Shown piece after piece: positions 632 to 36,432 of a DNA stretch of 64,000 nt. The translations under genes and the position numbers were made by a program. Source of the DNA: a virus. The stretch is from UHGV virus genome UHGV-1368191; one strand, 5' to 3'. Numbering within the stretch: position 1 is the stretch's first letter; the number at the start of each line of letters is the position of its first letter. Under the pieces are notes generated by a model, which worked only from the letters and a program-made list of their open reading frames with translations, had not been told where the DNA came from and did not search any database.

Positions 632-1636
632 TTGAATATTATTATGGCTATCAGCATTGGAAAACCCAGTATAATGGTGGATGATATATTATCAAAGGTA
701 ACAGAGATTGATATACTATACCACTATTTTGGATGTATTAAGTTTGGCACACCCATAAATTCTCCATTAAGAGAAGACAGACATCCTTCTTTTGTTCTTT
801 ATATCAATAAAGGAAGGGTTAGATTCAAGGATTTCTCAACTGGGGAAGGTGGGGGTCTATTTGATTTCCTAATGGCTTATTGGGGGGAGAGTTACAAATC
901 CACTTTAGAGAGGATTTGGGAGGACTTACCCAATATTTCCAATGCTGAGGCCAACAATAGCATTACTAAAACCCATTATATCAGTAGAATAAATAAGTCC
1001 TCAAGAAGTACAATGGAATGCAGGATAAGAAGTTGGAAGGACTATGATTTAGAGTATTGGGAGAGCTATGGTATAACTCTTCCATGGCTTAAGTGGGCTG
1101 ATGTATACCCTATATCACACAAGATTATCATAAAAGATGGCAAAAGGATGGTATTTAAGGCTGATAAATATGCTTATGCCTATATTGAAAGGAAAGAAGG
1201 CAATATAACTCTTAAAATCTATCAACCTTTTAATAGGGATGGATTCAAGTGGTGCAATAAGCATGATAAATCAGTTGTAAGTCTTTGGACTAGAATACCA
1301 GAATATGGTGACAGGGTGTGTATATGTTCTTCACTTAAGGATGCTCTCTGTCTTAGTTGTAATACAGGAATTCCAGCATTAGCTGTACAAGGTGAGGGCT
1401 ATGGTATGTCTGATACAGCCATAAATGAGTTAAAAAGAAGATTTAAGAGGCAATATGTTCTGTTTGACAATGATAAACCAGGAATAGAGGATGGAATAAA
1501 GCTTAGTCAAAGAACAGGATTTACCAATATTATATTACCCTCATTTGATGGAGGCAAGGATATATCAGACTACTTTAAGGTTTTAGGTAATAAAGAATTA
1601 TTCAGGAATAAGATATTAACTTTATTTGAGGAATAA
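632..1636 (+). CDS. DnaG-like DNA primase (degenerate Cys-less zinc-finger-like N-terminus plus TOPRIM domain)
   Basis: N-terminus 'SPLREDRHPSFVLY...FKDFSTGEGGGLFDFLMAY' parallels the DnaG zinc-binding pattern CPFHxEKTPSF...CFGCG..GD.I.F, with the cysteines replaced. Downstream TOPRIM-like signatures: 'VCICSSLKDALCL' and the DxD motif 'VLFDNDKPGIEDG'. Confidence 0.55.
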   Translation: MNIIMAISIGKPSIMVDDILSKVTEIDILYHYFGCIKFGTPINSPLREDRHPSFVLYINKGRVRFKDFSTGEGGGLFDFLMAYWGESYKSTLERIWEDLPNISNAEANNSITKTHYISRINKSSRSTMECRIRSWKDYDLEYWESYGITLPWLKWADVYPISHKIIIKDGKRMVFKADKYAYAYIERKEGNITLKIYQPFNRDGFKWCNKHDKSVVSLWTRIPEYGDRVCICSSLKDALCLSCNTGIPALAVQGEGYGMSDTAINELKRRFKRQYVLFDNDKPGIEDGIKLSQRTGFTNIILPSFDGGKDISDYFKVLGNKELFRNKILTLFEE

Positions 1637-2330
1637 GATTGATTCAGGGAACATAATATTAACACTTAAATTTGGTTTAGTTATGGAATCAAGAACTATT
1701 AAAATCATCAACAACAGAACACAGAGTCAAACAACTCTCTATACTTCAGCAGCCACTCTGGGAGAATTGAAAAATGAACTGGATAGTCGGGGTATAGACT
1801 ATGATGGACTGGATTTCTATTGTGGGGAAATGAGAGCTGAATTGAAGGAGGATTCAGCACCTCTCCCTGAGAAGGTAATGTGGAAAGGAGAAGAGAAGAA
1901 CTCCCTGACCTTCTTGCTTACCCCAACAAAGAAAATATCATCAGGTTCTAGGCGGGATATCTATGCCACTATCAAGAAATACAATCTGCAAGAAGTGGTA
2001 AAGGCCAAAACTGGAGCCAATTATACTCAAGTTTCAAATGATACCCTTGAGAAGATAATAAAAGACCATGTAAAAGATTCCTCTAAGGGTAATGAGGACT
2101 CCTCTAAGGGTAATGAAGGTTCCACCACTTGTCACACCAAAACTATAGAGGAGAGAGTCAAGAACCTGGAAGAGGCTTTTCTTAAATTGGTTGTAGCTCT
2201 CTATGATATGGATTTTCTTGACAGGGATATTTACTGTGAACTGGTTGAATGTATTGAGGACAGTGACCCTGAGGATGACTTCTTAAGTCAGAGTGAGATA
2301 GATGAGATGTTTGGTAGCTGGGCTAAATAG
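1626..2330 (+). CDS. hypothetical protein: candidate N-terminal ubiquitin-like beta-grasp domain (from internal Met at 1683), tandem SKGNE/D repeats, acidic C-terminus
   Basis: From 'MESRTIKIINN...TTLYTSAATLGELKNELDSRGIDYDGLDFYCGEMRAELKED...SLTFLLTPTKKISSG' the spacing of hydrophobic beta/alpha elements resembles ubiquitin (beta-beta-alpha-beta-beta-beta, ending L-x-L-L-x-x-x-x-SSG). Followed by a 21-nt tandem repeat at 2086..2127 (DSSKGNE x2). Confidence 0.4.
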   Translation: MRNKIDSGNIILTLKFGLVMESRTIKIINNRTQSQTTLYTSAATLGELKNELDSRGIDYDGLDFYCGEMRAELKEDSAPLPEKVMWKGEEKNSLTFLLTPTKKISSGSRRDIYATIKKYNLQEVVKAKTGANYTQVSNDTLEKIIKDHVKDSSKGNEDSSKGNEGSTTCHTKTIEERVKNLEEAFLKLVVALYDMDFLDRDIYCELVECIEDSDPEDDFLSQSEIDEMFGSWAK

Positions 2331-2340
2331 AATGAATGTA

Positions 2341-2373
2341 TAGGTAGGACTTACGTCCTACCTATTTTTTTTT
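2341..2373 (+). terminator. rho-independent terminator
   Basis: Perfect 10-bp stem taggtaggac/gtcctaccta with loop ttac, followed by T9, immediately after the stop of the upstream gene. Confidence 0.65.
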
Positions 2374-2381
2374 AATATTAC

Positions 2382-3686
2382 ATGGATAAGGTAGAATTTG
2401 AAAAGAGTTGTGCTATTCCCTTCTTTAATGAAGTATTAGAGTATCCTAAAAAGATTTATCGGATATTTGAGGACTTCTATGGAGAGGAGAGAGTAGACCT
2501 TCAAGGATTACCAAGCTATGGGAAAGTAGTTGACTTTCTTGATAATGCCTTTATAGGGATAGATACTCCCTCAAAAAGACAAACACTTATTGATAGAGCC
2601 CCAGAAGAGAATAAGGAAATAGTGAAAACTATAATCCTGGAAGCTATAAAAGAGAGTAGCCACATAGAATTTCGGAATAATCCATTTGCCATAAAGTATA
2701 TTTTTCCTTTGGTAAAAGACCGACTTATAGGGGAATTATCAGGGAATTATGAGGTAAATATAATGGTGTGGTTTCCTGATGTAACTGTTACTAATGAGTA
2801 TAATGAGTCTATTAATATAAAAGACTTATATGCCAAGGTTCCAATAAACCTCTTTGGGAGAAGTCTTGGAATGATAAAAATGAACAGGAGTACCTATACA
2901 GAAAGACAACTTAGTAGTGGGTATGTTCATAGTCATGTTCCCAGAATGAATCCTAATACTCGAAGGAATCTGACTTATTTTGAGAGAATTTGCATGGGAA
3001 CTGGTCCTATTAGAACCACTATAACTAACCTAGCTACGGAGTATGATGAAAATCTATGGGAACTACTATGCTTAGAGCTTGATAATTTCACTAAAGTAGA
3101 ATCCATATTAGGAGGTCCCTATGTTAAGTTAGGGGAGATAGGAGTAGGAAGCCAAACGACAATAGAGGGAATGTTTTCCCATAATAAACCTTTTACTGGG
3201 GCTACTTCTTTCAGTGTAAAAGACCTTCATGAATTCATCAAATGGCTTATTTCAAGAAGAGTTTTAAAGTTTTCTCTCACTCCCACTGGAGTGGCACTTG
3301 CTCAAAGTAGATATGATTTAGCTATTAAGATAAGCAATGAATTCCTGAAGTATATCAATATTAAGATCAGTGCTAAAACAGTAGATTATACAATTGACGA
3401 TTTAGTGAACTCCCTTGTATTAAGAAAACTCCTCATAAAGGATGGGAAATTCTATGCTGTAATTCCCATTTCTGATGACTATAGCACTTTAGAGGGAACT
3501 GACTTGTTCACCTTTAAGGGTAAGACTATAAAGCTCCACATAACTGAAGATACAGGGAATGGAGAGAATGTGGTTCTTTTACTGGGAGATGCTATTCTTC
3601 AAGATATATGTAGAATTATTTTGGAAATAATAAATTATCATTATGGAAGGGAAAACAGAGTTGATAAAGGAATCTACTTTATTTGA
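2382..3686 (+). CDS. hypothetical protein
   Basis: 434-aa ORF directly after the terminator. No confident motif. 'HSHVPRMNPN' was considered and rejected as a JAMM motif. Confidence 0.5.
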   Translation: MDKVEFEKSCAIPFFNEVLEYPKKIYRIFEDFYGEERVDLQGLPSYGKVVDFLDNAFIGIDTPSKRQTLIDRAPEENKEIVKTIILEAIKESSHIEFRNNPFAIKYIFPLVKDRLIGELSGNYEVNIMVWFPDVTVTNEYNESINIKDLYAKVPINLFGRSLGMIKMNRSTYTERQLSSGYVHSHVPRMNPNTRRNLTYFERICMGTGPIRTTITNLATEYDENLWELLCLELDNFTKVESILGGPYVKLGEIGVGSQTTIEGMFSHNKPFTGATSFSVKDLHEFIKWLISRRVLKFSLTPTGVALAQSRYDLAIKISNEFLKYINIKISAKTVDYTIDDLVNSLVLRKLLIKDGKFYAVIPISDDYSTLEGTDLFTFKGKTIKLHITEDTGNGENVVLLLGDAILQDICRIILEIINYHYGRENRVDKGIYFI

Positions 3687-4704
3687 TTTAGTGATTCCAG
3701 TGAGTGTTGAGAGAAAGATTAGGATTTTATGTAAAGAGATTCCTAATCTTGAGTGGTCTGGTATATTGTTTTATACAACTGAAGGGAGTTTTGATGATGG
3801 TTCCTTGAAGATTATATGCAAGGATATCTTACAAATGGATGAGGGAACTGGCACTTATACTGAGTTCCAAACTTCTCCTGATATAGCTACCTATTTGGTA
3901 AGTCATCCTGAATTGTGTAATATGTATCAAGGATTAATCCATTCACATGCTGGATTCCAGACTTTCTTTAGTGGAACTGACTTAAATACCTTGAAAGTAG
4001 AGGGCAGTGACATGGCTCATTTTGTATCTTTAATAGTCAATAATGAAGGTACTTATACAGCTGCTATAACAAGGAAAATCTTAGTGACTGGCCACATGAA
4101 AGAAACTATTCCTACATGGAATGGAAAGAAAGACACTAGGGAGTATGAAATCACTAATACGGAAATTCGATATCATTTCCTTAAAGTTACCAAGGAAATG
4201 CAAGAAACTCCTGATGATGATGAACTTCTTAATAGAATAGAAGAGATCAGGAAAGCCAAGAAAGAGACTTTAGCCAATAGGGTTTTCAATATCCCTGATA
4301 ATCTTTATAAGATACCTGTGCCTGAATCTGTGTCTCCTAGAGTTATTGATAGTAAAATGGATACACTAGTGAATAGTGTATTAAGACAACTTATATCAGG
4401 AACTCCTATAATAAACACCAAGAGGATGGACTTAAAAGCCTGGAGTGAAAACATAGAGAAAATCTATAGTAGGAGATTCAAGGACATACAGAGTTTCTCT
4501 AATTGGGCAGATTCCTATATTGATTTCCTTTTTAACTCCTACCAGTGTAGTGACTATGGATATAGTGATAATGAGGACTTTCACTTTCACTCTGACTTAG
4601 CAGAGGAACTTATTGATTCATTAGACCACTTAGGGAATAATGATTATTTTGATGCTTTTATTGAAATATTGAGTACTTATATTATAGATTATGGACATAA
4701 CTGA
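3643..4704 (+). CDS. JAB/MPN (JAMM) family metalloprotease-like protein
   Basis: Exact JAMM signature HxHx7Sx2D in 'LIHSHAGFQTFFSGTD' (nt ~3940-3981), with upstream Glu residues available for the E...HxH arrangement. About 200-aa C-terminal extension of unknown function. Confidence 0.6.
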   Translation: MEGKTELIKESTLFDLVIPVSVERKIRILCKEIPNLEWSGILFYTTEGSFDDGSLKIICKDILQMDEGTGTYTEFQTSPDIATYLVSHPELCNMYQGLIHSHAGFQTFFSGTDLNTLKVEGSDMAHFVSLIVNNEGTYTAAITRKILVTGHMKETIPTWNGKKDTREYEITNTEIRYHFLKVTKEMQETPDDDELLNRIEEIRKAKKETLANRVFNIPDNLYKIPVPESVSPRVIDSKMDTLVNSVLRQLISGTPIINTKRMDLKAWSENIEKIYSRRFKDIQSFSNWADSYIDFLFNSYQCSDYGYSDNEDFHFHSDLAEELIDSLDHLGNNDYFDAFIEILSTYIIDYGHN

Positions 4705-5716
4705 ATTAGAGGAATTGATAGACAGTGATATTACAGCTGAGAGTAATGAAGAACCTACGGGGATTTATGCTCCTATTCCTTACCCTAGTACTACTCAGAG
4801 TGATCTTTTAGTATCACAATTGTCTCAAGGATATCTTAAAATACACTCTATAGAACCATATGAGAGAGACTATAAGGTTATAGTCACTGATGACACAGGT
4901 AATTTCACTGCATATATAGTAGCTTATTCCTTGCTCTTAAGGATAAAAGAAGCAACAGAGCAATATGCTGCCAGTCAAGGAGCTGGTGTAAGTCCTAATT
5001 CCGCTTCCCTTGAATTTGATGAAACTACAAGCAGGTTCAATGGAGCTATTTGGTATGATAAAATCACTAACCAGCACATAATCCTTGCTGGATTAGGAGG
5101 AATAGGCAGTTGGACAGCATTATTGCTAGGAAGAATGAAACCAGCTCTTCTTGCATTGTATGATCCTGATGTAGTTGAAAGGTCTAATATGTCAGGACAA
5201 CTATATGGAGTATCTGAAATAGGATATAGTAAAGCAGCCTCTATAAGAAAGATTGTTAACTGGCTATCTGACTACTTTCCTTCAGCTCTGGATATGAGAT
5301 ATACAGGAACTTCACCAGCAAGAGATGTAATGATTTGTGGATTTGACAATATGGAGTCTAGACAACTATTCTATAAAAAATGGAAAGCTCATGTAAGTGG
5401 CTCAGAAGACAAGAAAAAATGTCTTTTTATAGATGGGAGATTAGCCGCTGAAAGTCTACAAGTATTCGCTATTACAGGTGATGACACCAGATCCATGAAA
5501 CTTTATGAAGAGAAATGGTTGTTTGATGATTCTGAAGCTGAAGCTACTGTTTGTTCTTATAAACAGACCTCCTTCATGGCTAATATGATAGCTTCCATTA
5601 TAACAAATATTTTCGTAAACTTTGTGGCTAATCAGTGTGATCCACCTTTCCCTAGGGAGGTTCCCTTCTTTACTGAATATGATGCTGCTACTATGTTCTT
5701 AAAGATTGAATCATGA
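4691..5716 (+). CDS. E1-like ThiF/MoeB-family adenylyltransferase
   Basis: Rossmann nucleotide-binding motif 'ILAGLGGIGSWTALLLGR' followed by 'LYDPDVVERSNMSGQLY' (cf. ThiF D.D.VE.SNL.RQ). 'MICGFDNMESRQLF' (cf. VDC.DN...R.L.N). Cys-containing segment 'CSYKQTSFMANMIASII...VNFVAN' at the position of the MoeB/E1 cross-over loop. Cys-free 120-aa N-terminal extension. Confidence 0.75.
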   Translation: MDITELEELIDSDITAESNEEPTGIYAPIPYPSTTQSDLLVSQLSQGYLKIHSIEPYERDYKVIVTDDTGNFTAYIVAYSLLLRIKEATEQYAASQGAGVSPNSASLEFDETTSRFNGAIWYDKITNQHIILAGLGGIGSWTALLLGRMKPALLALYDPDVVERSNMSGQLYGVSEIGYSKAASIRKIVNWLSDYFPSALDMRYTGTSPARDVMICGFDNMESRQLFYKKWKAHVSGSEDKKKCLFIDGRLAAESLQVFAITGDDTRSMKLYEEKWLFDDSEAEATVCSYKQTSFMANMIASIITNIFVNFVANQCDPPFPREVPFFTEYDAATMFLKIES

Positions 5717-6510
5717 GTGTTAGTAATCAATTTAAAGATACCCTCAAATCTATGTTTCGTACTCAATGGGTTAAAGATGAGATGTATATTAACCCTGGAA
5801 ACCTCATTAGTGGACTTAGTTATGGGGATGTATGGCAGTCTTTTATCAGTGTGGATTGCAGGGACTTTAGTAGTTTAAGAATACCTCTGTTTCTAGGTGG
5901 GTTCCGCAAACTTAACTCTGTTATAACCACTAATCTTAGATCAGACACATGGGATATGAAGTATTTGATGGTACCCCTGAATCTAGGCAAATATCGTGTT
6001 AATACCCTTAAGAATTTTAAGTCATCTCTTCGGGCTATAAAGGAGATGAATGAGGCTGAACCCAATTTTGGAAATCCTCTATGCCAAGTTAAAATAAATG
6101 ATACCATTTACTATGGAGGTAGGGGAGCTTACTTTGATTCTAAAGGAAATCCCCTACTTATGATAATACTAGAGTGTGGCATGCAAGAGGGATATCATGT
6201 TATAGACAGCAATTATAAGTTACAGATTAAAAATTGTTTTGTGTATATACACCCTAGAGTCTATACATCAAAAGGAGTGCTGGAGAAGTACATAGTATCA
6301 AAGATACTACCTTATGTAATTACCAATACTTTCTGTATAGGGACTTATAACTCATTCATGTCATCTTCCCATGACTTGTACTCCCCAGTAGTTATAATAA
6401 CTGACTTTGACTATATGTTCCACAAGCCTATTATAAATGAGAGTACCTCTAATGAGGAACTCAATGACTTGTTAATAGCTAATGTAGACAGTGTTGATAG
6501 ATTCACATGA
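5713..6510 (+). CDS. hypothetical protein
   Basis: ORF start overlaps the stop of the E1-like gene (ATGA overlap), suggesting co-translation. No motif recognised. Confidence 0.5.
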   Translation: MSVSNQFKDTLKSMFRTQWVKDEMYINPGNLISGLSYGDVWQSFISVDCRDFSSLRIPLFLGGFRKLNSVITTNLRSDTWDMKYLMVPLNLGKYRVNTLKNFKSSLRAIKEMNEAEPNFGNPLCQVKINDTIYYGGRGAYFDSKGNPLLMIILECGMQEGYHVIDSNYKLQIKNCFVYIHPRVYTSKGVLEKYIVSKILPYVITNTFCIGTYNSFMSSSHDLYSPVVIITDFDYMFHKPIINESTSNEELNDLLIANVDSVDRFT

Positions 6511-7220
6511 CACTAAAGGAGTACTTTGGAGATTGGTTGAAGGTATTTGACTATAAAGAATTCAATAGCATACTTGCACAACTTAACACATTATACAGAA
6601 CAAGATTAATATGCCCTAAGAAAGAAAATGTCTTTAGGGCATTTAATCTTTGTCCTTATAATAGTTGTAGGTGTATCTTTATTGGATATGACCCTTACAA
6701 TGATATTTATGAAGGAGAACCTAGAGCCACTGGTATTTTGTTTGGAAATAATAAAAATATCAGTGAAGACAAGTATTCTCCTTCATTAAAAATTGTTAAG
6801 AATGCCAGTATAGATTTGTGTATTCCACATAATTATATTACCTTTGACCCCACATTGGAGAGCTGGGCTAAGCAAGGAATCTTGATGATAAACTCAGCTC
6901 TTACTGTTGAAGCATGGAAGCCAGGTTCACATCTAATGCTTTGGAGGAAATTTATTTCCACTATGCTTAGTAATATCTCACAAATAGAAACTGGAATGGT
7001 GTATGTGTTATTTGGTTCTGAAGCTAAGACTTTTAAGCCTTATATAGGAAAGAATAACACTATACTTGAAGAGAACCACCCAGCTTACTACGCTAGGATG
7101 CATAAAGAAATGCCTCCAGGGCTATTCAGAGAGATTAACACTATTTTAAAACGTATATATAATTATCAAATCAAATGGTTTAATTATGAAAACAATGAAG
7201 AGGAATTACATTACTATTAA
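6507..7220 (+). CDS. ung: uracil-DNA glycosylase, family-1 (UNG)-like, variant catalytic motif
   Basis: 'IGYDPYNDIYEGEPRATGILFG' parallels UNG 'LGQDPYHGPNQAHGLCFS'. 'LMINSALTVEAWKPGSH' parallels 'LLLNAVLTVRAHQANSH'. 'VLFGSEAKTF...HPAYYARM' parallels 'LLWGSYAQKK...HPSPLS'. Confidence 0.65.
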   Translation: MTLKEYFGDWLKVFDYKEFNSILAQLNTLYRTRLICPKKENVFRAFNLCPYNSCRCIFIGYDPYNDIYEGEPRATGILFGNNKNISEDKYSPSLKIVKNASIDLCIPHNYITFDPTLESWAKQGILMINSALTVEAWKPGSHLMLWRKFISTMLSNISQIETGMVYVLFGSEAKTFKPYIGKNNTILEENHPAYYARMHKEMPPGLFREINTILKRIYNYQIKWFNYENNEEELHYY

Positions 7221-7653
7221 TTGTCATTCAATGGATGGAGTTTCAACTGAAGAGGCTGAAAAGTTCTTAGTGGAACTGTTTAAGAAAATGGGAATACTCG
7301 GAGAAGAGGAAGATGAAGAAGAAAGGGAAGCTGATAAAGTCATAGATCACTTAGCACACAGGTTGGAAATAGATGATCCAAGTGCTTTAGAGGATCTATT
7401 GAGTTGGATAGATAATGTTTCTGAGCTTTCTACTTTCCTTATTCTGGCTAAGGAATATGCCCTAATGCATAACTCTGGTACTCCTAAGGCTGATGAGTAT
7501 TATACTTTCAACATCCTTAATGGATGTATAATAAGGATTAAGGATGTGAAAGAGTCAGTTCTTAAGCAGATTCCCTACTTCAAAACTGTAGAAGAGGCTA
7601 AGAAGTGTAAAGAGGTATTATATCCTTGGTGGGAGAGTGTATATGGAGAATAG
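7186..7653 (+). CDS. hypothetical acidic protein
   Basis: ORF with a poly-Glu/Asp stretch (EEEDEEEREAD). Overlaps the end of the UDG gene. Confidence 0.4.
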   Translation: MKTMKRNYITINCHSMDGVSTEEAEKFLVELFKKMGILGEEEDEEEREADKVIDHLAHRLEIDDPSALEDLLSWIDNVSELSTFLILAKEYALMHNSGTPKADEYYTFNILNGCIIRIKDVKESVLKQIPYFKTVEEAKKCKEVLYPWWESVYGE

Positions 7654-8791
7654 AAAGATTAGGGGGGCTACTAAAGTCGAGGTTGGTGAAACTGTCTTCA
7701 AGAGTAAATTAGAAGCTAGAATAGCCGAGGCCTTTCAAGAACTAGGAATAGAGTATGAGTATGAGAAATACAAGATTACTTTATTACCTAGTTTTGACTA
7801 TGACAAGGAGCACTTTAGATCTATGATTTACACTCCAGACTTCAAGGTAGGAAATGCTATTATAGAAGCTAAAGGATTTCCCTCTGACGCTTGGAAAATA
7901 CGAAAGAAAATAATCATGTGGACCTTGAAGAACATTCCAGAATTGGAATATTTCGAGGTTCACTCTATTCAAGAACTTCTTGACATGGTAGAACAAGATG
8001 ATAGATTCCTAACCTATAATATACAGGTGTTTACATTGGATAATACTTTTGTTGGTGAGTACAATTCAGTTACTGATGCTGTAAATGAACTAAACATAAA
8101 GTCAAATAAGTCTAATATATTTTCTTGTATAATAGGAAAAAGGAATAAAGCTGGGGGTTATATATGGAAAAGAGTCTCCAGGGTATTTATTCCAGATGAG
8201 AATGAAGAATGGAAGGATGTCATTGGATTTGAAGGTCTCTACTATGTCTCTAACCTAGGAAGAGTAGCTTCAGCCCAATTCCATGGAATACGTAATTTCA
8301 GGTTAATGAGTCAGTTTTCTGATTCTTTGGGATATCACTTCGTGAAATTGAGGAATTGGAAGAAGGGTATAGTTATGAGTGCTCCTGTTCATAGATTGGT
8401 AGCTGAGGCTTTCCTCCCTAATCCTGAGAACAAACCTCAAGTAGATCATATTGACACTGATCCCTCTAATAATAATGTTGAGAACCTTAGATGGGCCACC
8501 AGCCTGGAAAACCAAAGGAATCCACTGACTTTAGAGAGATTACGTAGTTCCATAATCTCTATGAATAAACAGGGAATAGGACCAAAAGCAAGTGCTAAAA
8601 AGAAAAGAAAGAGAGTCGTATTCACTGATGGAACTTCTGTCACTAGATATGAATCAATTAGTCAAGCTTCCAAGGCTACTGGGCTTTCTACTTGCTCTAT
8701 ACAGAGATGGTGTAACAGGCAGATAAAAGGATGGAGTTATGAACAATCAGAACATACAGAAACTGATCAAGGAAGCGGAGGTAATACCTAA
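7637..8791 (+). CDS. HNH homing endonuclease (NUMOD4-like plus HNH plus NUMOD1-like HTH) with N-terminal PD-(D/E)xK nuclease-like domain
   Basis: N-terminus 'TPDFKVGNAIIEAKG' (PD-x(n)-ExK pattern). 'WKDVIGFEGLYYVSNLGRVAS' matches the typical N-terminus of HNH homing endonucleases. HNH core 'HRLVAEAF...VDHIDTDPSNNNVENLRWATSLENQRN'. Two 'GGYIWK'/'KGWSY' HTH-like segments. Confidence 0.7.
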   Translation: MYMENRKIRGATKVEVGETVFKSKLEARIAEAFQELGIEYEYEKYKITLLPSFDYDKEHFRSMIYTPDFKVGNAIIEAKGFPSDAWKIRKKIIMWTLKNIPELEYFEVHSIQELLDMVEQDDRFLTYNIQVFTLDNTFVGEYNSVTDAVNELNIKSNKSNIFSCIIGKRNKAGGYIWKRVSRVFIPDENEEWKDVIGFEGLYYVSNLGRVASAQFHGIRNFRLMSQFSDSLGYHFVKLRNWKKGIVMSAPVHRLVAEAFLPNPENKPQVDHIDTDPSNNNVENLRWATSLENQRNPLTLERLRSSIISMNKQGIGPKASAKKKRKRVVFTDGTSVTRYESISQASKATGLSTCSIQRWCNRQIKGWSYEQSEHTETDQGSGGNT

Positions 8792-9970: not shown

Positions 9971-12862
9971 ATGACAGAGCAAGAATGGCTAAATGATAAT
10001 CAGCTCTCATTGGATATATGGCATAAAAAGTACCAAGTTGACAATGAGAGCTTTGAGCACTGGCTTGATAGAGTAAGTGGAGGAAACCAAGATATAAGAC
10101 AACTTATTCTTGAAAAGAAATTCCTGTTTGGGGGTAGGATACTAGCAAGTAGAGGAGTGACTGACAGAAGGGTTACTTATAGTAACTGTTATGTAATTGC
10201 ACCCCCAAGGGATAATATTGAATCTATCTTTGAAACTGCAAGTAAGTTAGCAAGAACTTATAGTTATGGAGGAGGCTGTGGTGTGGATATTAGCAACCTT
10301 AGACCTAAAGGTACTATAGTCCATAATGCAGCTAAAAGTACATCAGGTGCTATAAGTTTCATGGACTTCTATAGCTATGTTACTGGTCTTATAGGTCAGT
10401 CAGGCAGACGTGGGGCATTAATGATTAGTATTAGCTGTAAGCATCCTGACATTGAGGAGTTTATTAATCTTAAAACTAAAGCTGGAGTATGTGAAAAAGC
10501 TAACATAAGTATCAGAGTATCTGATGAATTTATGGAAGCTGCTATACAGGATAGGGATTGGATAACTGAATTTACAAGTCCTGAGACTGGTACTATAACC
10601 AAGACTTTCAAGGCAAAAGATTTGTTAAAACTCCTAGCTAAAAGAAATTGGGAGTGGGCAGAACCTGGATTATTATATTGGGATAGAATTGCTCATTATA
10701 ATATGCTTGATAATGATGATGCTTTTGCTTATGCAGGGGTCAACCCATGTCTTACAGGAGATAGCTTGATTCAAACAGTGGAAGGGGAAATTCCTATAAA
10801 GGAGTTAGTAGGAAGTACTCCATTTGTATATTGTATGGATTCTGATGGTAATCTTGCTATAAGAAAAGCTGTTAAGGTTTGGAAAACAAGAAAGAATGCT
10901 CAACTTGTTGAGGTTATAGCAGGTAAGGGAAGACTAATTTGTACTCCAGACCATAGAATATTTACTACTAATAGAGGTTGGGTTGAGGCTGCTAATCTTC
11001 AAAAAGGAGATAAAATAAAGGGTCTTAATAGACAAACTACAGGGCATAAATATTGTTCTGTAAGCCTTAGTGGCACTAAGTATGAGAAGGAACATAGATT
11101 TATTGCAAGACACTTCTATGATATAGAAGATATGGATGTTCATCATATTAATGATAATGGGTTTGACAATAGATTATCAAATCTTGAAGTTATCACTCAT
11201 GAGGAACATTCAAAACTTTCTAATACTGGAAGGGTTATTGAAGTTAATAGAGATGAAACTACTGGAAGGTATCTTCCTAAAGAAGAGCATACAGGTAGAA
11301 CCTGTAGAAACTTAGGAAAGGAAGTAGGTATTAATTGGTATATTCAAGAAGTAAGAACTCTTGATTATACTGAGGATGTCTATGACATGACTATAGAGGA
11401 CACTCATAACTTCATTGCTAATGGGTTTGTAGTTCATAATTGTGCTGAAGAGCCATTACCAGCAGGAGGCTCATGCTTATTGGGTAGTATTAACCTTAGT
11501 GAATTTGTAACTAATCCATTTACTGATAAGGCTAAGATGAACTGGATTAGTCTTGTAGAAGCTGTAGAGATAGCTATCTCAGGTCTTAACGAAGTACTTG
11601 ATGAAGGTATGATGTTACATCCTCTTCAAGAGCAAAGAGACTCTGTAAATAAGTGGAGACAAGTTGGCTTAGGTACAATGGGATTAGCTGATATGCTAAT
11701 TAAATTAGGTATTGCTTACGGTTCTAATAAAGCTCTTGAGATAACTGAAAGAGTATATAAGCTTATAGCAGCAACAGCTGTGCAAGCATCTATCAAATTA
11801 GCTACTTTTTCAGGATGCTATCCTATGTGTGATAAGGAGAAGTTAGCTAATTCCTCGTTCATTAAATCATTAAATCTTCCAGATGAAATGATTAGTGATA
11901 TAAGGACTTATGGATTAAGAAATAGTCAACTTCTTACTTGTGCTCCTACAGGTAGTATTGCTACCATGTTGCAAGTATCTACTGGAGTAGAACCTAACTT
12001 TGCATTAAAGTACACAAGAAAGACTCAATCATTGAATGGTAAAGATACTTATTATGAAGTATTTGCTAAAATAGTAGATGACTATATTGGTGATAGATAT
12101 GGTGAAGATATAAAACTTCCTGATTACTTTGTAGAGTCTAAGGATATAGCTTCTATTGATAGAATCAAAATGCAGGCAGTACTACAGAAGTACACTGATG
12201 CAAGTATTAGTTCTACAATAAATCTTCCTAAAGAAGCTACAGTGGAAGATGTGTATAACATCTATGTAGAAGCATGGAAGCATGGACTTAAGGGATGTAC
12301 AGTCTACAGGAGTGGATGCTTTAGGGAAGGTATTCTTACTACTAAAAAGCCTATCAATATGCAAGCTGTAGGTGCTCCTAAGAGACCTAAAGAGCTTCCC
12401 TGTGATATTCATAAGGTAAAGGTGAAAGGAGAGAACTTCATAGTATGTGTGGGTCTTTATGAGGAGAAACCATATGAGGTATTTGTCTTTAGGCTCAAGA
12501 ATAACATAGAGCTTACTGACACAAGGGGAACCATAACCAAGCTCAAGAAGGGTGTATATAGCCTTGAGTCAAAGGATTTGATAATAAATAACCTCCTTAA
12601 TACTGATATTACTGTTGAGGAGAAGGCTGCCACTCTGTATAGTTCTATGCTTCTTAGGCATGGAATCTCTCTTAAGTATATTATTAAGACAGCAAGGAAA
12701 GTCAATGATAATATAATCTCTTTCAGTAGTGCCATGTGTAGGGTACTATCTAAGTATTTACCTAAGGATACTGGGGAATCCTGTCCTGAATGTGGTGAGA
12801 AATTAATAAGAACTGGAGGATGTGTCTCATGTCCTTCCTGTGGTTATAGTAGATGTGAGTAA
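9971..12862 (+). CDS. ribonucleotide reductase large chain (class I/II-type fold, probably cobalamin-dependent class II-like), interrupted by an intein; C-terminal Cys-rich ribbon
   Basis: 'YGGGCGVDISNLRPKG' (first active-site Cys region). Thiyl-radical motif NPC(x)E reconstituted across the intein (AGVNP | intein | CAEEPLPAGGSCLLGSINL). N-terminal 'FLFGGRILASRG'. C-terminus 'CPECGEK...CVSCPSCGYSRCE'. Confidence 0.8.
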   Translation: MTEQEWLNDNQLSLDIWHKKYQVDNESFEHWLDRVSGGNQDIRQLILEKKFLFGGRILASRGVTDRRVTYSNCYVIAPPRDNIESIFETASKLARTYSYGGGCGVDISNLRPKGTIVHNAAKSTSGAISFMDFYSYVTGLIGQSGRRGALMISISCKHPDIEEFINLKTKAGVCEKANISIRVSDEFMEAAIQDRDWITEFTSPETGTITKTFKAKDLLKLLAKRNWEWAEPGLLYWDRIAHYNMLDNDDAFAYAGVNPCLTGDSLIQTVEGEIPIKELVGSTPFVYCMDSDGNLAIRKAVKVWKTRKNAQLVEVIAGKGRLICTPDHRIFTTNRGWVEAANLQKGDKIKGLNRQTTGHKYCSVSLSGTKYEKEHRFIARHFYDIEDMDVHHINDNGFDNRLSNLEVITHEEHSKLSNTGRVIEVNRDETTGRYLPKEEHTGRTCRNLGKEVGINWYIQEVRTLDYTEDVYDMTIEDTHNFIANGFVVHNCAEEPLPAGGSCLLGSINLSEFVTNPFTDKAKMNWISLVEAVEIAISGLNEVLDEGMMLHPLQEQRDSVNKWRQVGLGTMGLADMLIKLGIAYGSNKALEITERVYKLIAATAVQASIKLATFSGCYPMCDKEKLANSSFIKSLNLPDEMISDIRTYGLRNSQLLTCAPTGSIATMLQVSTGVEPNFALKYTRKTQSLNGKDTYYEVFAKIVDDYIGDRYGEDIKLPDYFVESKDIASIDRIKMQAVLQKYTDASISSTINLPKEATVEDVYNIYVEAWKHGLKGCTVYRSGCFREGILTTKKPINMQAVGAPKRPKELPCDIHKVKVKGENFIVCVGLYEEKPYEVFVFRLKNNIELTDTRGTITKLKKGVYSLESKDLIINNLLNTDITVEEKAATLYSSMLLRHGISLKYIIKTARKVNDNIISFSSAMCRVLSKYLPKDTGESCPECGEKLIRTGGCVSCPSCGYSRCE
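10748..11440 (+). mobile_element. intein (231 aa) with embedded HNH endonuclease domain, inserted in the RNR active-site NPC|E motif
   Basis: Starts 'CLTGDSLIQTVEG' (intein block A) right after extein ...GVNP. Ends '...NGFVVHN' followed by extein Cys (CAEEP). Internal HNH signature 'HHINDNGFDNRLSNLEVITHEEH'. Confidence 0.75.
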
Positions 12863-23260: not shown

Positions 23261-23268
23261 TAATTTTG
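23261..23268 (+). promoter_or_regulatory. possible Bacteroidetes-type -7 promoter element (TAnnTTTG) upstream of the giant gene
   Basis: TAATTTTG lies between the terminator and the first ATG of the 3050-aa ORF (ATG at 23290). The ORF-track start at 23266 is a TTG. Confidence 0.2.
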
Positions 23269-26200
23269 CAAAAACTAATTTTATTAAATATGTTAAGAGT
23301 TTATTGCACAGTAGTTACTCCTGAAATAAATGAAATGGCGGAGAAAATAGGGTTACATCCACAAATAGTTAATAACCTAATTTGTGTATGGCAAACCCTT
23401 AATAATAAACCAAATCAATATCCTTCAGAGCAAGAACTACAAGAATTAATTAAAAACAGAGAAAGCTATAATGACGCTTTTAAGTATGCTATTCCTTATT
23501 ATACTAGAAGCGAAGAAAAAGGCTATGGAGTACACTTTGATGAGAATGATAACCTAGTTATTAATCCTTATCCAAAAGATACGCAGCTTAAGGATGCCTT
23601 AAATACACTTCCTTTAGGAGTTCCTGAAGATCTTAAATCTGAAATAACTACGTTTAAAGAGCTTTACATAGTTCAGTTATATGCTGAAAGATTATTACAG
23701 ACAGATCCTAATTATGATATACAGGATAATCCAAATGCATATATAGCAGCTGTGACTGCCTCTATTAGAATGCTTATGGAAGGCAAAAAGAGGCATCTAT
23801 ATGATACTACTAGTACTCCTGTTCCTACAAATCCCCAAGTAGAAAGTGAACAGAAGACTACTAAGACTCCTACCATTGAAAAATCTATAGAGTATACACT
23901 TCCTGGACAGGGAAAACAGACTTATACTATAAAGGGTACACATATTTATAATAAAGATGGTAAAGAGGTCTTTAAAGAAGATAGTGTACACAGAAATAGG
24001 ATATTTGCCAATTTAGCGGTTAAAGAAGGAAGAGCAGTAGTGGTAGAACATGGAGATACTAGTTATGTAGTTAATAACAAAGGACATATTATCTCAGTTG
24101 CTACAGGTAAGATGATGCAGTGGGGAGAAGAAAATAGTAATAGAAAAGCTATTCTGGAGGAAGCTAGGAAAAAGTTCTCCTCCAAGATATCTACTCAACA
24201 AAGTCAAAAAACTGTAACTTCTACTTTAGATACTAGGACTATATCTAACAAGACAGCCTCTTTTGGAGTTACTATATCAGAAAACATAATGGGTAATTAT
24301 TCTGAATGGCTTAAAGATAACCCAAATGGTATAGTAGCTTACAGGGTGGACAAGGAACATTTTAATACACCACAGCTTGTTCAAAGAGGTATTATAGGTA
24401 ATCCATTTAATTGGCAAAAGTATGGTGAGGGGAAATCCCTTCAGATGTTCTATGATTGGTTAACCACAGGTAATAATTTTGGGGAGGAAAGTGCTGCTGA
24501 GGAATATAGAAAGGCTATTATTAATAAAATACTAAGTTCTCCAGTGGGTACTCCTATTCTATACTACAAAGAGAAGTACCAGCCTAGTCACGCCACTATG
24601 ATTGGGTATTTAATTAACCATAAAGATCTACTTAATACTGGGATTGTTTCCAGTACCGAAATCACTACTTCTAAAGGAACTGATTATCCCTCTAGGACTA
24701 GAGAAAATGCTGATTGGTCTGATATAACTATGGCTTTATTTACTGTAAGGTCTAATGGAGAAACTTTAACAGCTCAGGCTGCTGGTTCAAAAGACAGAAA
24801 ACAAATTGGAAACAGAACTATAAGAAATACCAAGGATAAGTATATAGAAGCTGAACTTAGCGATGATTTAAATAACCAAGCTACAATTATTGCTAATAAT
24901 CTTGAAAAACAAATAAAAGAGAAAGGTCTTCCTACCAAGGGAATAAAGCTTAATATAGCTGGTAACGGTATCTATTCTTTTAGTGAAGGAGTATCACAAG
25001 AATATCTTAATGATTTAGTTTCTAGTGTTATTCAGATTCTTCAACAAAAGGGTATTACTATATCTAAGATAAGAAGTGGAGGACAGACTGGTGTAGATGA
25101 GGCTGGTATTATAGCTGCCCAAAGATTGGGTATTCCTAATGAAGTACATACTACTGCTGATTTTAAATTTAGAGGCAGAGATGGACAAGATATAAGAGGA
25201 GAAGAGAGATTTAAGGCAAGATTTATAAATCAACAAAGCACTGAAGGTGATAACAATAGAAGAGATATCCAGATAAAAGGGGAAAACATTTCTAGTAAGG
25301 GTTCAACTTTTGCTAAAATGTTGACTAATCCTGGGAATGATCTTACAGTAGTCTATAAAGGCAAGACATTTAGGAATGCTGAACATGCTTATCAAACATG
25401 GAAATCAGGTGAATTTGATGAAGCTGCTTTTAATAGTACCGCTTTTAAACCTGTAGGCAAAAAGCCTGTAAATAAGTCCTCAAATTTTCAAACTATGGTA
25501 GAGATACTCACTGCCAAGTTAGAGCAACATCCTGAATTGATTCAGGGCATCAATGACAGAAGGGGCATTGAGTATCTAAATAGGTCATGGCATGAAGTTA
25601 CTGGTGATGAATACTGGGAAAAACAAGGTAACTTTATGAAGGCTCTTATCCAAGCTTATAATAGAGTTAATTCTGACCAAAATACACAACAGGAAGAGGG
25701 AACTCCTGAAGACCTTCCTGAAATAGGTATTCCTGAAGCACTTGCAAGCCAGGTACAGGTAAATAAGGAAAGTCCAAGAGCTATTCTTTCAAGGCAAATG
25801 AGTCCTCAAGAAATAACTAGGAGGGAGGATATGATAGCCAGGGATTTCTCTGATATTATTAATGATGCCCTAAGTGACATGCAAGAAGGTCTTAGAAATG
25901 ATATAGAGAATGAAAAAGACCCACTAAGAAGGCTGCAATTATCCCAGAAATTAAATGCACTGGAAGATCCTGTCAAAGGTAGAAGAGCCGCTATAACAGA
26001 GCTTGGAATCGAGGAAATCTTGAATAGAATGAAAGAAGAATATCAAGAATGGATTGACATGGACAGCTCTGAGATAGACTCTTATCTAGGAAAAGGGAAA
26101 GCTGACTATGTAAAACAAGCTTATCAAAAAGTTCTTGATAATTTTGATCTCCTGTTTGATGAGGCAAGCTCTATGATAGAACAGAAAGAGCACTTAAGAA

Positions 26201-29200
26201 TAACGAGAGGAGATACTAAAGAAGTACAGAATACAGAAGACCAAGAACAAGTTTTAGAGGAGGAACTTGGTGATGATGATAGTGGTAACAGAGTAAGTGG
26301 GAATGAAGGGTATACATTCAAAATTAGATTTGTGGATCCTTTTACTTCTATTAGGGCTGAAACTAGGAAAGTCCTTAGTGACATAAAACAGATTGATACA
26401 GAAGGGAATGTAGCCACTGATGATTTAGGTAGAACTATTTATGTTAGGGAAGACTTTGCTCACTCAGCACTGCTGGCTTCCCTTAATTGGATGGATAACC
26501 CTAATGATTTCAGTGTTAAGAATGCAGATGGTACTTATAGCTTACCCGCATTGGAAAATGCCGCTATGATATATCCTTGGATTAATCAGGTAATAGAGGA
26601 ATTAGAGGCTGATCCAAACCTGATAAGTGTCTTCTATAATGATTTCAGAAAAGACTATATATCTTATTGGATGCAAAGAGATGGAAAAGTATTCCCTATG
26701 AATTCTCCTATAGACTATGAAGGAACTTTTAGGGGAATACAACGTAATTATGAGAGTGGCTCTCCACAGGATGATGACTCTATTTTTGATGTTAACCTGA
26801 AAATCAGTAAAGCTAATATAAGGAAAGCCAGAACCCTACTTACTAATGTAAGAAAGAGCCTTAGTAAAGCTGTGTATAGTGAGGATATGGAAACTATAGT
26901 TCCTTCTATACAAAAACTTCTCAATATAATTGGATTTAGCTCTACTAACCTGAATTTGACCCAATTAAAGGATATAAGTAATGTTGGGTTAGCGAACACA
27001 ATCCTTGATAGTATAGCTAGAGTACTTGATAACAGTGATACTCTTCAAGAAGGACAACACTATGTTGATACTGTTAGAGACCCTCTTAATATAATAGCTA
27101 AATTAGTAGGCAAAGTTACTGAACTGGATGCTCAAGTAACATTTAGGCAAGGTAAGAACTCATATCCTTCATATGCTGTTCCAAATTATATAGAAACTGT
27201 GTTTAAAAAGCTCCTTAAAAAGGATGATGACCAGAGGAATGAGTATTTACAAAATGAATTTGGAAAGTATGCCTGGTTCAAGAATAAAAACGGGGAATGG
27301 AATAATGAATGGCTTAGGCTTATAGAAGAGGATCCCAATGTGAGAGACATGGTAACCCTGGTTAATATGTTCAATATGGAAGGAGTTGACTATGAAAACT
27401 GGTCACCTAGTCTTATTACTACAGGGTTCATGAATATGTATTTTGCTATTGATGAGAATCCAGACTTGGATACCCAATATGGATATTATAACTTCCCCAT
27501 ATTCTCTGATACAAAGATGGCCACTTTTGTCAAATTCATTAAATATACTGGTGACTATAGAAGTAAATTAATCCCATTATATAGAAAACTAGTTAATCAA
27601 GAATTAAAGAGAATAAGACTGGTAGAGGATAGGGCTAAAAAGGGTATTCCTCCAATAAGTAATTTTGATAAAAGAGGAAAAAGATTCTGTTTTCTTCCTG
27701 AACTTAATACTCTTAAATTAGATTTTGAGGGTAAAGAAATGACTCTCCTTGATATAGTGAGAGAGTTAAATAGGAGGGGTAATGTAAAGAGTATTGATGC
27801 CTACATTGATAGTGCTATAAACTGGACTATAGATAAACTGGCTGATGACTTTATCTCTAATCATAAAGAGGTAGTAAGTGATGAGAGTCTTGATAAAATA
27901 AAAAAGGCTACTGGAGTAAAGAGTGATGAGGCTGCTGTTGACAAGATTAGGGAATATGTATGGAATCAAATATTCGCTACTTCACAAATGGTTCAAATGG
28001 TAACTACTGACTTAGCCTATTATGCGAGTGATACTGATTTTCAAAAGAGATTTAAGGAGGTATATGCAGCTGGAACTAAGTTGAATACTAACAGTAAATA
28101 TGGAAGAAAGACAGAAAGAACTGTCTATATCAGGGACAATATAGTAACTTCTCCTACTTATATCCCTCTTAAGGAGATGTTTACTAAAGCTTATAAAGAG
28201 GAAAGAATAACCAAGATGGATTTGGATTCTATTCTTTATAAGTTCAGAAACATAAATAGTGTAGATGGACAAGCTTATAGAAGTTTAAGTTCTTATAGAT
28301 CTATACTGGATATGCTAGGAAGGTGGACTCCTAAGATGGAGGAAGCTTTTGATAGATTAAATAAAGGCAATTGGGATATTAGTGACTTTGATATAATATG
28401 GCAGACTATTAAACCTTTTGTCTATGGCCAAGTTGAGACTCCTGATGGGTTAGGGGGACTACTAAGAACCCCTCATCAAAACAAGAACTCAGAGTTTCTA
28501 CTATTAGCTACCTATCAAGTCCTAGGAACAGTATTGAATAACTCTCCACAATTAAGAGGACTTAATAAGTTCATGGAAACGAATAATATTGATGTAGTCC
28601 AATTTGAATCTGCTGTGAAAGTAGGTTGTAGTGGAGTTATAGACATTAATGTAAGTCCTTCAAAAATTAAAAAGGCATCTGAAGACAGATTTATAGAGGT
28701 TAATGGAGAGAAATATGATGTTCCTGATATCAGTGGGTTGAACATCAGTAAAGCTTTTGACCAGATAAAGGAGTACTTTGATAATAGACTGGAAAGAGGC
28801 AGTATTACACAGCAGGAGTATAATAATATCATTGATTACCTTAAGCCAACAGAAACTGAGGTATTTAATACCTTAGTTGAGAATACAAGAAAGAAGATTA
28901 ATGATACTGATGTTCTTACTAAGGATAATTACAACAAGACTACAGTGCATGAAATAAGCTATGATGATTACATGATAGCCCAGCCTACTCCAGAGCATCT
29001 GTTTGATGTTGAATCTATAATAGGTTCTCAGTTCAGGAACCTTATATACTCAGATCTCCCTGAAGATATAGAAATTAATCTTGGAGATATCACTATTAAG
29101 GGAAGGGACAATGTAAAGAGATATTATTTCTCTCTTATGGTTGAGAACCTCTTGGATTCATATAAAGAGGTCAATGAGGTTTTTTCAAGCATAGAAACTC

Positions 29201-36379: not shown

Positions 36380-36385
36380 AACAAA

Positions 36386-36417
36386 ATAGGGAACCTAAAT
36401 GGTTCCCTATTTTTTTA
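36386..36417. terminator. bidirectional rho-independent terminator between convergent gene blocks
   Basis: Stem atagggaacc/ggttccctat with loop taaat. T6 follows on the plus strand and a T-rich tract (tttgtttt) follows on the minus strand. Confidence 0.6.
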
Positions 36418-36432
36418 CTATTTATCAGTTCT

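Follow-up and report, generated by a model that had tools for sequence, protein, structure and literature searches.

A candidate ubiquitin-like conjugation cassette encoded in the replication module of crAss-like phages

UHGV-1368191 is a crAss-like phage genome of about 96 kb from human-gut metagenomes, and the stretch analyzed here (the window, 64,000 nucleotides, more than half of the genome) carries at positions 1683-6510 a tightly packed, same-strand cassette of five open reading frames (ORF1 to ORF5), with the gene for a DnaG-type primase on one side and that for a uracil-DNA glycosylase (UDG) on the other. With a probability that we put at roughly 0.6, the cassette constitutes a self-contained ubiquitin-like conjugation pathway that would be co-expressed with the phage replication genes. 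The evidence reported below supports as new that a system comprising an E1, an E2, a JAB peptidase and a Ubl (ubiquitin-like protein) is encoded by a phage, within its replication module, and that it features a divergent E2-like protein and a precursor in which the Ubl is joined to an extension. The five frames considered in an earlier note on this DNA (1626..2330, 2382..3686, 3643..4704, 4691..5716, and 5713..6510) were all recovered at these coordinates, on the plus strand, and the successive overlaps along ORF2, ORF3, ORF4, ORF5, and the UDG gene amount to 44, 14, 4, and 4 nucleotides, in that order.

Results

E1-like adenylyltransferase and JAB peptidase

ORF4 (4691..5716) encodes a protein of 341 amino acids (aa) with a single E1-like adenylyltransferase domain at residues ~112-341. 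The ThiF/E1 core that the earlier note had read in this gene is borne out by a match to the Pfam ThiF family (PF00899; E=4.8e-15, 55.8 bits for a cut-off of 28.1), and its P-loop, GLGGIG, is located at 5090-5107. Residues G134-G139, D158, K181, and D219 are invariant in the family. Searched against the PDB, the ORF4 family profile finds UBA5 as its best match (1.4e-9), followed by MccB, TcdA, UBA6, PaaA, ThiF, and Cap2, a set of neighbors that points to no clear clade; hhalign aligned ORF4 to ThiF with 96% probability. ORF4 contains only four cysteines (216, 244, 288, and 316), and the first 120 residues are hence Cys-free, as had been claimed. Among these cysteines, C288 (5552-5554), placed after the DGR strand and before the C-terminal helix, is 100% invariant, being present also in Flavobacterium phage FpV4, in a phage region on a contig of a Puia sp. 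metagenome-assembled genome (MAG; hereafter the Puia locus), and in a distant homolog from a Xanthomonas jumbo phage. Because the N-terminal extension of ORF4 is devoid of cysteines, varies in length, and is missing in FpV4, the protein is not a fusion of the Cap2 type, which agrees with the earlier proposal.

A rival reading is that the chemistry of ORF4 involves no conjugation. The Ubl could instead be thiocarboxylated, in the manner of ThiS, MoaD, or TtuB, or nucleotidylated, as in the MccB system, with the purpose of modifying a nucleotide, a tRNA, or a DNA base during replication. Such non-conjugating ThiF chemistry would be in keeping with the deposited annotation of the protein as thiamine biosynthesis protein ThiF, with the fact that the best NCBIfam matches are ThiF models, with the presence of MoaD and MccB among the structural and sequence neighbors, and with the nucleotide-metabolism genes that adjoin the cassette. 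The NCBIfam matches, however, are all far below the equivalog thresholds for ThiF, MoeB, and TcdA (at best 50 bits for a cut-off of 159, and 45 for one of 152), and the cassette contains no gene for a rhodanese, a cysteine desulfurase, ThiG/ThiH/MoaE, or any other sulfur acceptor. Furthermore, conjugation systems have as their signature an E2 fold bearing an invariant Cys in combination with a JAB peptidase and a Ubl made as a precursor (PMC1779556). A sulfur-carrier or nucleotidylating role is thus very improbable, and the E1-like protein has a Ubl partner in the predicted beta-grasp domain of ORF1, contrary to one of the conditions for doubt set in the earlier note, as well as an invariant Cys at the expected position of the crossover loop.

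The product of ORF3 (3643..4704; 353 aa) combines a JAB/JAMM metallopeptidase domain (~residues 20-145) with a C-terminal region. Its JAMM motif, HSHAGFQTFFSGTD, spans 3940-3981 and corresponds to H100-S-H102...S110-x-x-D113, which together with E37 (3751-3753) makes up the complete motif E...HxHx(7)Sx(2)D for catalysis and zinc binding. In a set of 84 sequences, each of these five residues (E37, H100, H102, S110, and D113) is conserved in 97% or more, so that the assignment of a JAMM protein made in the earlier note stands, with all metal and catalytic ligands in place. The Pfam Prok-JAB model matches ORF3 below its 25-bit cut-off (E=2.9e-4, 21.1 bits), and the family profile aligns on the motif with CSN5 (E=0.0016) and with Rpn11 and archaeal JAMM1 (0.01-0.1) in the PDB.

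Candidate ubiquitin-like precursor

Upstream of the enzyme genes, ORF1 occupies the open frame 1626..2330. Its true start is most likely the ATG at 1683, because an identical 215-aa protein in the database (P0121) and all of the homologs begin with ME(S/T)R, and the gene is accordingly taken as 1683..2330. The family comprises 1469 clusters, and nothing informative was found for it in Pfam, NCBIfam, PHROGs, or PADLOC. In an alignment-based AlphaFold2 model with an overall predicted local distance difference test score (pLDDT) of 73.6, residues 4-81 follow the order beta1-beta2-alpha-beta3-beta4-beta5, with the beta-grasp blocks scoring 81-90, and are succeeded by a disordered segment (84-88) and then by helices. 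Residues 1-88 (1683..1946) are therefore modeled as a ubiquitin-like beta-grasp fold, precisely where a Ubl domain had been suspected, and their terminal KKISSG ends exactly at 1946.

The end of the Ubl domain follows the pattern KK(I/V)xSG, with S87 and G88 kept without exception in crAss-like phages, in gp53 of FpV4, and in the phage region of the Puia MAG. In the model this S87-G88 segment has a pLDDT below 50 and is internal to the precursor, and both JAB cleavage and E1 activation are predicted to take place after Gly88 (codon 1944-1946). Beyond this residue, ORF1 of crAss-like phages continues into a helical C-terminal extension with a conserved terminal S-x-x-E-I-D/N-x-M-F peptide, and the corresponding region of the Puia locus is quite different, consisting of an acidic low-complexity tail. 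In the crAss-like phage cr106_1, a gene for a free-standing HNH homing endonuclease (locus L002, 4949-5464) has been inserted two codons past the SG of the ORF1 ortholog, so that the Ubl is left in a 92-aa ORF (...KKIKSGKF*) and the extension in an ORF of its own. The Ubl and its extension need thus not be covalently joined, and the position of this natural split, right at the predicted boundary, lends support to the earlier idea of a JAB-processed precursor and suggests that Gly88 would be exposed through cleavage. Another crAss-like ortholog of ORF1 (locus L016, 2022-2987; 321 aa) carries a linker insert at ~2600-2800, LQVVKVVKETLGLGLKEATEVVNGVP..., which reads like the C-terminal domain of ribosomal protein L7/L12.

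The cr106_1 arrangement, in which both halves persist as separate genes, also bears on the notion that the Ubl is no more than a chaperone or timer, placed N-terminally and cleavable, that serves the helical domain of ORF1, possibly a DNA- or replisome-binding factor, and that the E1 and ORF2 do not conjugate it to other proteins. The conservation of the extension and of its terminal SxxEI(D/N)xMF motif within crAss-like phages would be expected under this purely regulatory role, and Ubl fusions released by a peptidase are known from the phage TAPI/TAPK proteins. The extension is nonetheless poorly conserved beyond crAss-like phages, as its replacement in the Puia locus illustrates, whereas the conserved core is formed by the genes for the Ubl, the E1, the E2-like protein, and the JAB peptidase; an invariant E1 Cys and the His...Cys motif of ORF2 would moreover be left without an explanation. 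For these reasons we deem a role restricted to processing improbable.

The spacer between ORF1 and ORF2 contains a hairpin resembling an intrinsic terminator (2340..2374, plus strand), with a perfect stem of 11 base pairs, a loop of 4 nucleotides, and a run of nine T, located directly 3' of the Ubl gene and ahead of the enzyme genes. A hairpin followed by a T-run occupies this spacer in 74 of the 79 related loci, and the stem sequences differ by lineage. The maintenance of the hairpin with different stem sequences suggests that transcription is halted or attenuated after the Ubl gene, and a conserved terminator at this point would yield Ubl transcript in excess over enzyme transcript.

E2-like protein

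ORF2 (2382..3686) encodes a multidomain protein of 434 aa, for which an E2-like core of the UBC/RWD type is proposed at ~residues 101-240. Its homologs number at least 214 and none of them contains a Pfam domain; likewise, nothing informative was obtained for ORF2 from Pfam, NCBIfam, PHROGs, or PADLOC. Matches to E2 families (Pfam UQ_con and Prok-E2_A-E) were not found at E values up to 1 for any of 60 members, the family profile yielded only chance matches against PDB sequences, and hhalign returned a probability of 0.5% against UBE2D2. The evidence for an E2 comes instead from structure prediction and from conserved residues. The model of ORF2 is confident (pLDDT 88.7), and its residues 101-236 are ordered as a helix, three long strands, a loop, a short helix, a Cys, and two further helices, an order that fits a UBC-like core. 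A Foldseek search of the model against the PDB gave nothing below E=0.5, and in the fold comparison the UBC/UEV/RWD superfamily accounts for about 70% of the top 60 matches, with BubB and Cap2 from bacteria among them, which supports a UBC-type alpha/beta-meander fold for the modeled core.

Six residues of this core (Y181, H183, S184, H185, C204, and G206) are invariant across all lineages. They form two short motifs, Y181-x-H183-S184-H185 (2928-2936) and C204-x-G206 (C204 codon, 2991-2993), with H183-S184-H185 placed 19 residues ahead of C204 and a helix following the latter. Bacterial E2s are recognized by the hallmark of a conserved Cys with a conserved His upstream of it (PMC1779556), and the E2s of Bub systems rely on an invariant Ser-His pair (PMC11601596). 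The earlier note had offered both proteins flanking the two enzymes as E2-like or target components; the fold and the invariant His...Cys motif uphold this for the 434-aa protein as an E2, but no role finds support for the 265-aa product of ORF5.

In another assignment of ORF2, the protein is a metal-dependent enzyme or a scaffold that happens to share the alpha/beta-meander, and the system works without an E2, like the archaeal SAMP-UbaA-JAMM system. We consider this unlikely, given the preponderance of UBC/UEV/RWD folds, BubB and Cap2 among them, in the fold comparison, the invariant His-then-Cys order that ORF2 has in common with E2s (PMC1779556), and the strict co-occurrence of ORF2 with the E1, JAB, and Ubl genes.

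Conservation across phages

The order primase-ORF1-ORF2-ORF3-ORF4-ORF5-UDG is found in ~80 crAss-like loci of IMG/VR, and since these independent, related loci repeat it, the association of the genes goes far beyond chance. In FpV4 the order is primase-UDG-ORF1-ORF2-ORF3-ORF4, and the phage region of the Puia sp. MAG contig reads DnaB-RecT-primase-x-ORF1-ORF2-ORF3-ORF4-x-SegE-exonuclease-PolA. The core formed by the Ubl, E2-like, JAB, and E1 genes, whose order is carried by crAss-like, FpV4, and Puia loci alike, is thus a stable element of replication modules in several lineages of Bacteroidota phages. Cultured phages with the same cassette include crAss001 (Bacteroides intestinalis; proteins gp79, gp78, gp77, and gp76), DAC15 and DAC17 (B. 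thetaiotaomicron), and FpV4 (Flavobacterium psychrophilum). A tblastn search of deposited phages recovered relatives only in these groups, together with E1 homologs that stand alone in phages of Xanthomonas and Erwinia. When the genome collection was scanned with the E1, the only matches were phage contigs binned into MAGs and the single Puia phage region; as all of them are of phage origin, no bacterial, non-phage version was found in that scan.

ORF5 (5713..6510, plus strand; 265 aa) stands apart from this core. The 175 representative homologs of its family are all ~250 aa long, evolve fast, and display few invariant residues and no Cys. Searches against Pfam, NCBIfam, PDB, PHROG, and PADLOC produced no informative match (only chance matches for the PDB profile), and no homolog was detected in FpV4, the Puia locus, or the Xanthomonas phage, which is why ORF5 is left out of the conserved core. 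Its 4-nucleotide overlaps with both ORF4 and the UDG gene indicate that it is translationally coupled to the two, and ORF5 is regarded here as an accessory specific to the crAss-like lineage, which could be a target, an adaptor, or an unrelated protein.

The genes neighboring the E1 homolog in the Xanthomonas jumbo phage were considered as counterparts of ORF1-3 and discarded, as there is no sequence relationship. Directly 5' of the E1 homolog in Xanthomonas phage PhiXhv-16, an 892-aa protein (locus L005, 3241-5919) contains IHPHMAVPSSQESHGSLCLG, an E2-like HPx...C motif; it has Cys-rich termini and no detectable sequence relation to ORF2.

The position of the cassette is relevant to its biological role. 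The JAB peptidase, and perhaps the whole cascade, might undo or hijack a host immunity of the Ubl type, for instance by stripping the Bil Ubl off virion proteins, by reversing Cap2 priming in the manner of Cap3 in the antiphage system CBASS, or by tagging and inactivating host defense proteins. This is a proposal about role, with which the conjugation chemistry favored here is compatible. It draws on the fact that the characterized bacterial E1/E2/JAB systems all act in phage-host conflict and on the weak similarity of the ORF4 Rossmann region to CBASS E1-E2 and BilD models, and a 2026 preprint speculated likewise for a UBA5-like family of gut phages. Deconjugation, however, would require nothing but the JAB peptidase; none of the Bil, Bub, or Cap models matches ORF1, ORF2, or ORF3; and the cassette is fixed in the replication modules of three phage lineages rather than found in a variable accessory island, a placement that argues weakly against a purely accessory anti-defense set. 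Taken together, this makes an anti-defense function, including the anti-Bil and anti-CBASS roles offered in the earlier note, rather unlikely.

Genomic context

No near-identical DNA was found among deposited phage records, and the protein-level relatives of the phage belong to the Steigviridae (e.g., crAss001, cr106_1, and DAC15). The flanking primase and UDG genes, both on the plus strand, are located at 632-1636 and 6507-7220, respectively. The protein encoded 5' of the primase gene (8-631) belongs to the gp81 family of crAss001, has no family match, and ends in a conserved Pro/Trp-rich tip (...PWxxWxK or ...TPWG); a docking tail common to this protein and ORF1 was rejected, their C-terminal motifs being different. 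Downstream of the cassette, between a small ORF that follows the UDG gene and a gene for a PD-(D/E)XK exonuclease, lies a 384-aa ORF resembling a homing endonuclease (7637-8791; NUMOD4, HNH_3, and NUMOD1 matches). Farther along, a 963-aa ORF similar to the large subunit of ribonucleotide reductase (9971-12862) is interrupted by an intein (CLTGDS...VVHNC), with Pfam matches to Intein_splicing and HNH_3. A convergent strand switch accompanied by a sign flip of the GC skew occurs at ~36380-36433 and is surrounded by giant ORFs (23266-32418, 3050 aa; 32420-36379, 1319 aa; and the minus-strand 36433-43887, 2484 aa), in an arrangement that resembles that of crAss001. The window contains no tRNA genes.

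Discussion

Proposed pathway

We infer a series of chemical steps, a thioester route, and the existence of a target from what was observed of the folds, of the invariant catalytic motifs, of the conserved gene order, and of a gene that is naturally split where cleavage is expected. ORF1 would be translated as a precursor in which an 88-residue beta-grasp Ubl precedes a helical extension, and the JAB peptidase encoded by ORF3 would cleave past the invariant Ser87-Gly88 to expose a C-terminal glycine; the cutting of a Ubl fusion after Gly by a JAB-E1 protein has been demonstrated experimentally for Bub (PMC11601596). The E1 encoded by ORF4, comparable in size to UBA5 and ThiF, would then adenylate Gly88 at the expense of ATP and form a Cys288~Ubl thioester, from which the Ubl would be handed to Cys204 in the E2-like core of ORF2 with the assistance of the H183-S184-H185 motif. 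Conjugation probably follows a thioester-type route. As no E3 is apparent, the choice of the acceptor may fall to the large domains that ORF2 has on its N- and C-terminal sides, and this acceptor could come from the phage or from the host, perhaps as a factor in replication or in host takeover. ORF3 may additionally undo conjugation.

Several observations weigh against this pathway. The confidence of the ORF1 model is medium overall. In ORF4, the equivalence of C288 with the crossover-loop cysteine of UBA5 and ThiF is positional only, and the C-terminal half of the protein, searched alone against the PDB, produced no alignment to solved E1s onto which C288 could be mapped. The family also lacks CxxC zinc motifs, and has Gly169 (5195-5197; family consensus NMSGQ) at the position of the Arg in the NLxRQ motif of ThiF, UBA5, and MoeB. 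This Arg contacts the ATP phosphate; the invariant R115, R148, and R250 of ORF4 might act as its substitutes. For ORF2, both C204 and S184 are candidate nucleophiles, and H183, H185, and C204 could form a metal site in place of an E2 active site. Lastly, no E3 is apparent.

To our knowledge, prokaryotic conjugation by E1, E2, JAB, and Ubl components has been shown only recently, and every characterized case is bacterial and antiphage. Deposited annotations of the cassette proteins read "thiamine biosynthesis protein", "metalloprotease domain containing protein", or "hypothetical", with one record naming an "E1 enzyme family protein". The crAss001 paper does not discuss these genes, and in the searchable literature we found neither a paper joining crAss-like phages with ThiF nor a description of the full cassette. 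A more far-reaching claim would hold that this is the first complete and autonomous phage-encoded Ubl cascade, consisting of a precursor Ubl, an E1, a structurally novel E2, and a JAB peptidase, that it is a fixture of the replication module in Flavobacterium phages and in a large group of abundant crAss-like phages of the human gut, and that it is used offensively on host or phage proteins, whose tagging would control replication or host takeover; we advance it tentatively, as somewhat more doubtful than probable. If true, bacterial viruses too would wield Ubl tagging, in a mirror image of the use of ubiquitin by eukaryotic viruses and in an inversion of the antiviral role of Bil, Bub, and CBASS. 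It would likewise add a divergent E2-like family that is invisible to sequence methods, and provide a function for four or five genes that are conserved, yet annotated as hypothetical or mis-annotated, in phages that rank among the most abundant of the human gut.

Comparison with known systems

The minimal, homodimeric E1-like proteins UBA5, ThiF, and MoeB resemble ORF4. With them it shares a single domain of ~230 residues with the P-loop, the ribose Asp, the Lys, and the Mg-Asp, and its Cys lies where the crossover loop is expected to end, as do those of UBA5 (C250) and ThiF (C184), a likeness of position. ORF4 differs in the Gly that takes the place of the NLxRQ Arg, in its want of a CxxC zinc site, and in scores far below the NCBIfam equivalog cut-offs. 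The ThiS-ThiF and MoaD-MoeB pairs are set apart in addition by the lack of any family of sulfur transfer or sulfur acceptance (for thiamine or the molybdenum cofactor) among the scanned cassette and flanking genes.

Type II CBASS Cap2/Cap3 also brings together E1 and E2 activities with a JAB peptidase, and shows weak similarity in the Rossmann region, but in Cap2 the E2 is fused to the E1 and the protein conjugated is the CD-NTase itself, with no Ubl involved, and no CD-NTase was found among the Pfam-scanned neighbors in the window. The TAPI (Ubl) and TAPK (JAB plus NlpC/P60) proteins of lambdoid and T1 phages resemble the cassette in pairing a JAB peptidase with a Gly-ending Ubl that bears a C-terminal extension; they belong, however, to tail-assembly modules with neither E1 nor E2, whereas the cassette has both and resides in a replication module. 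In Bub (6E/DUF6527; BubAB, BubCD, and BubE of Citrobacter), the E1 and E2 are Cys-less and form oxyesters through Tyr and Ser (PMC11601596), in contrast to the invariant Cys present in both the E1 and the E2-like protein here. Bub features Ubl-E2 and JAB-E1 fusions, while the phage Ubl is fused to a non-E2 domain and the JAB and E1 proteins are separate, and no match to the DUF6527 protease occurs among the cassette proteins.

In Bil (BilA-D), as in the cassette, the Ubl, E2, JAB peptidase, and E1 components are each encoded by a gene of their own, four in all; Bil has no E3, its E2 being thought to pick the targets, and cysteine-based chemistry is plausible in both. The two differ in that Bil is bacterial and antiphage whereas the cassette is encoded by phages, and in that BilD is an E1 with the IAD-AAD-CYS architecture whereas ORF4 has a single adenylation domain. 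The phage Ubl consists of a single beta-grasp domain with a long C-terminal extension, and the E2-like protein reaches 434 aa with extra domains. The sole PADLOC match to Bil is that of the ORF4 Rossmann segment to BilD (18 bits, a weak match), and none of the PADLOC models matches ORF1-3. The 6d operons, which also occur in Bacteroides, similarly encode a Ubl, a JAB peptidase, E1-like and E2-like proteins, and a rapidly diverging helical protein (Iyer/Burroughs/Aravind, 2006; PMC1779556). In their E2s, however, the upstream His is missing and a His is found downstream instead, in contrast to ORF2 with its upstream HSH motif, and the operons are bacterial and lie outside phage replication modules; the likeness demonstrated is one of inventory. 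The cassette hence belongs neither to Bil, Bub, or CBASS Cap2/Cap3 nor to the sulfur-carrier pairs. Its inventory of parts is nearest to Bil and to the 6d operon class described in 2006, and its precursor processing and minimal E1 recall type I Bub.

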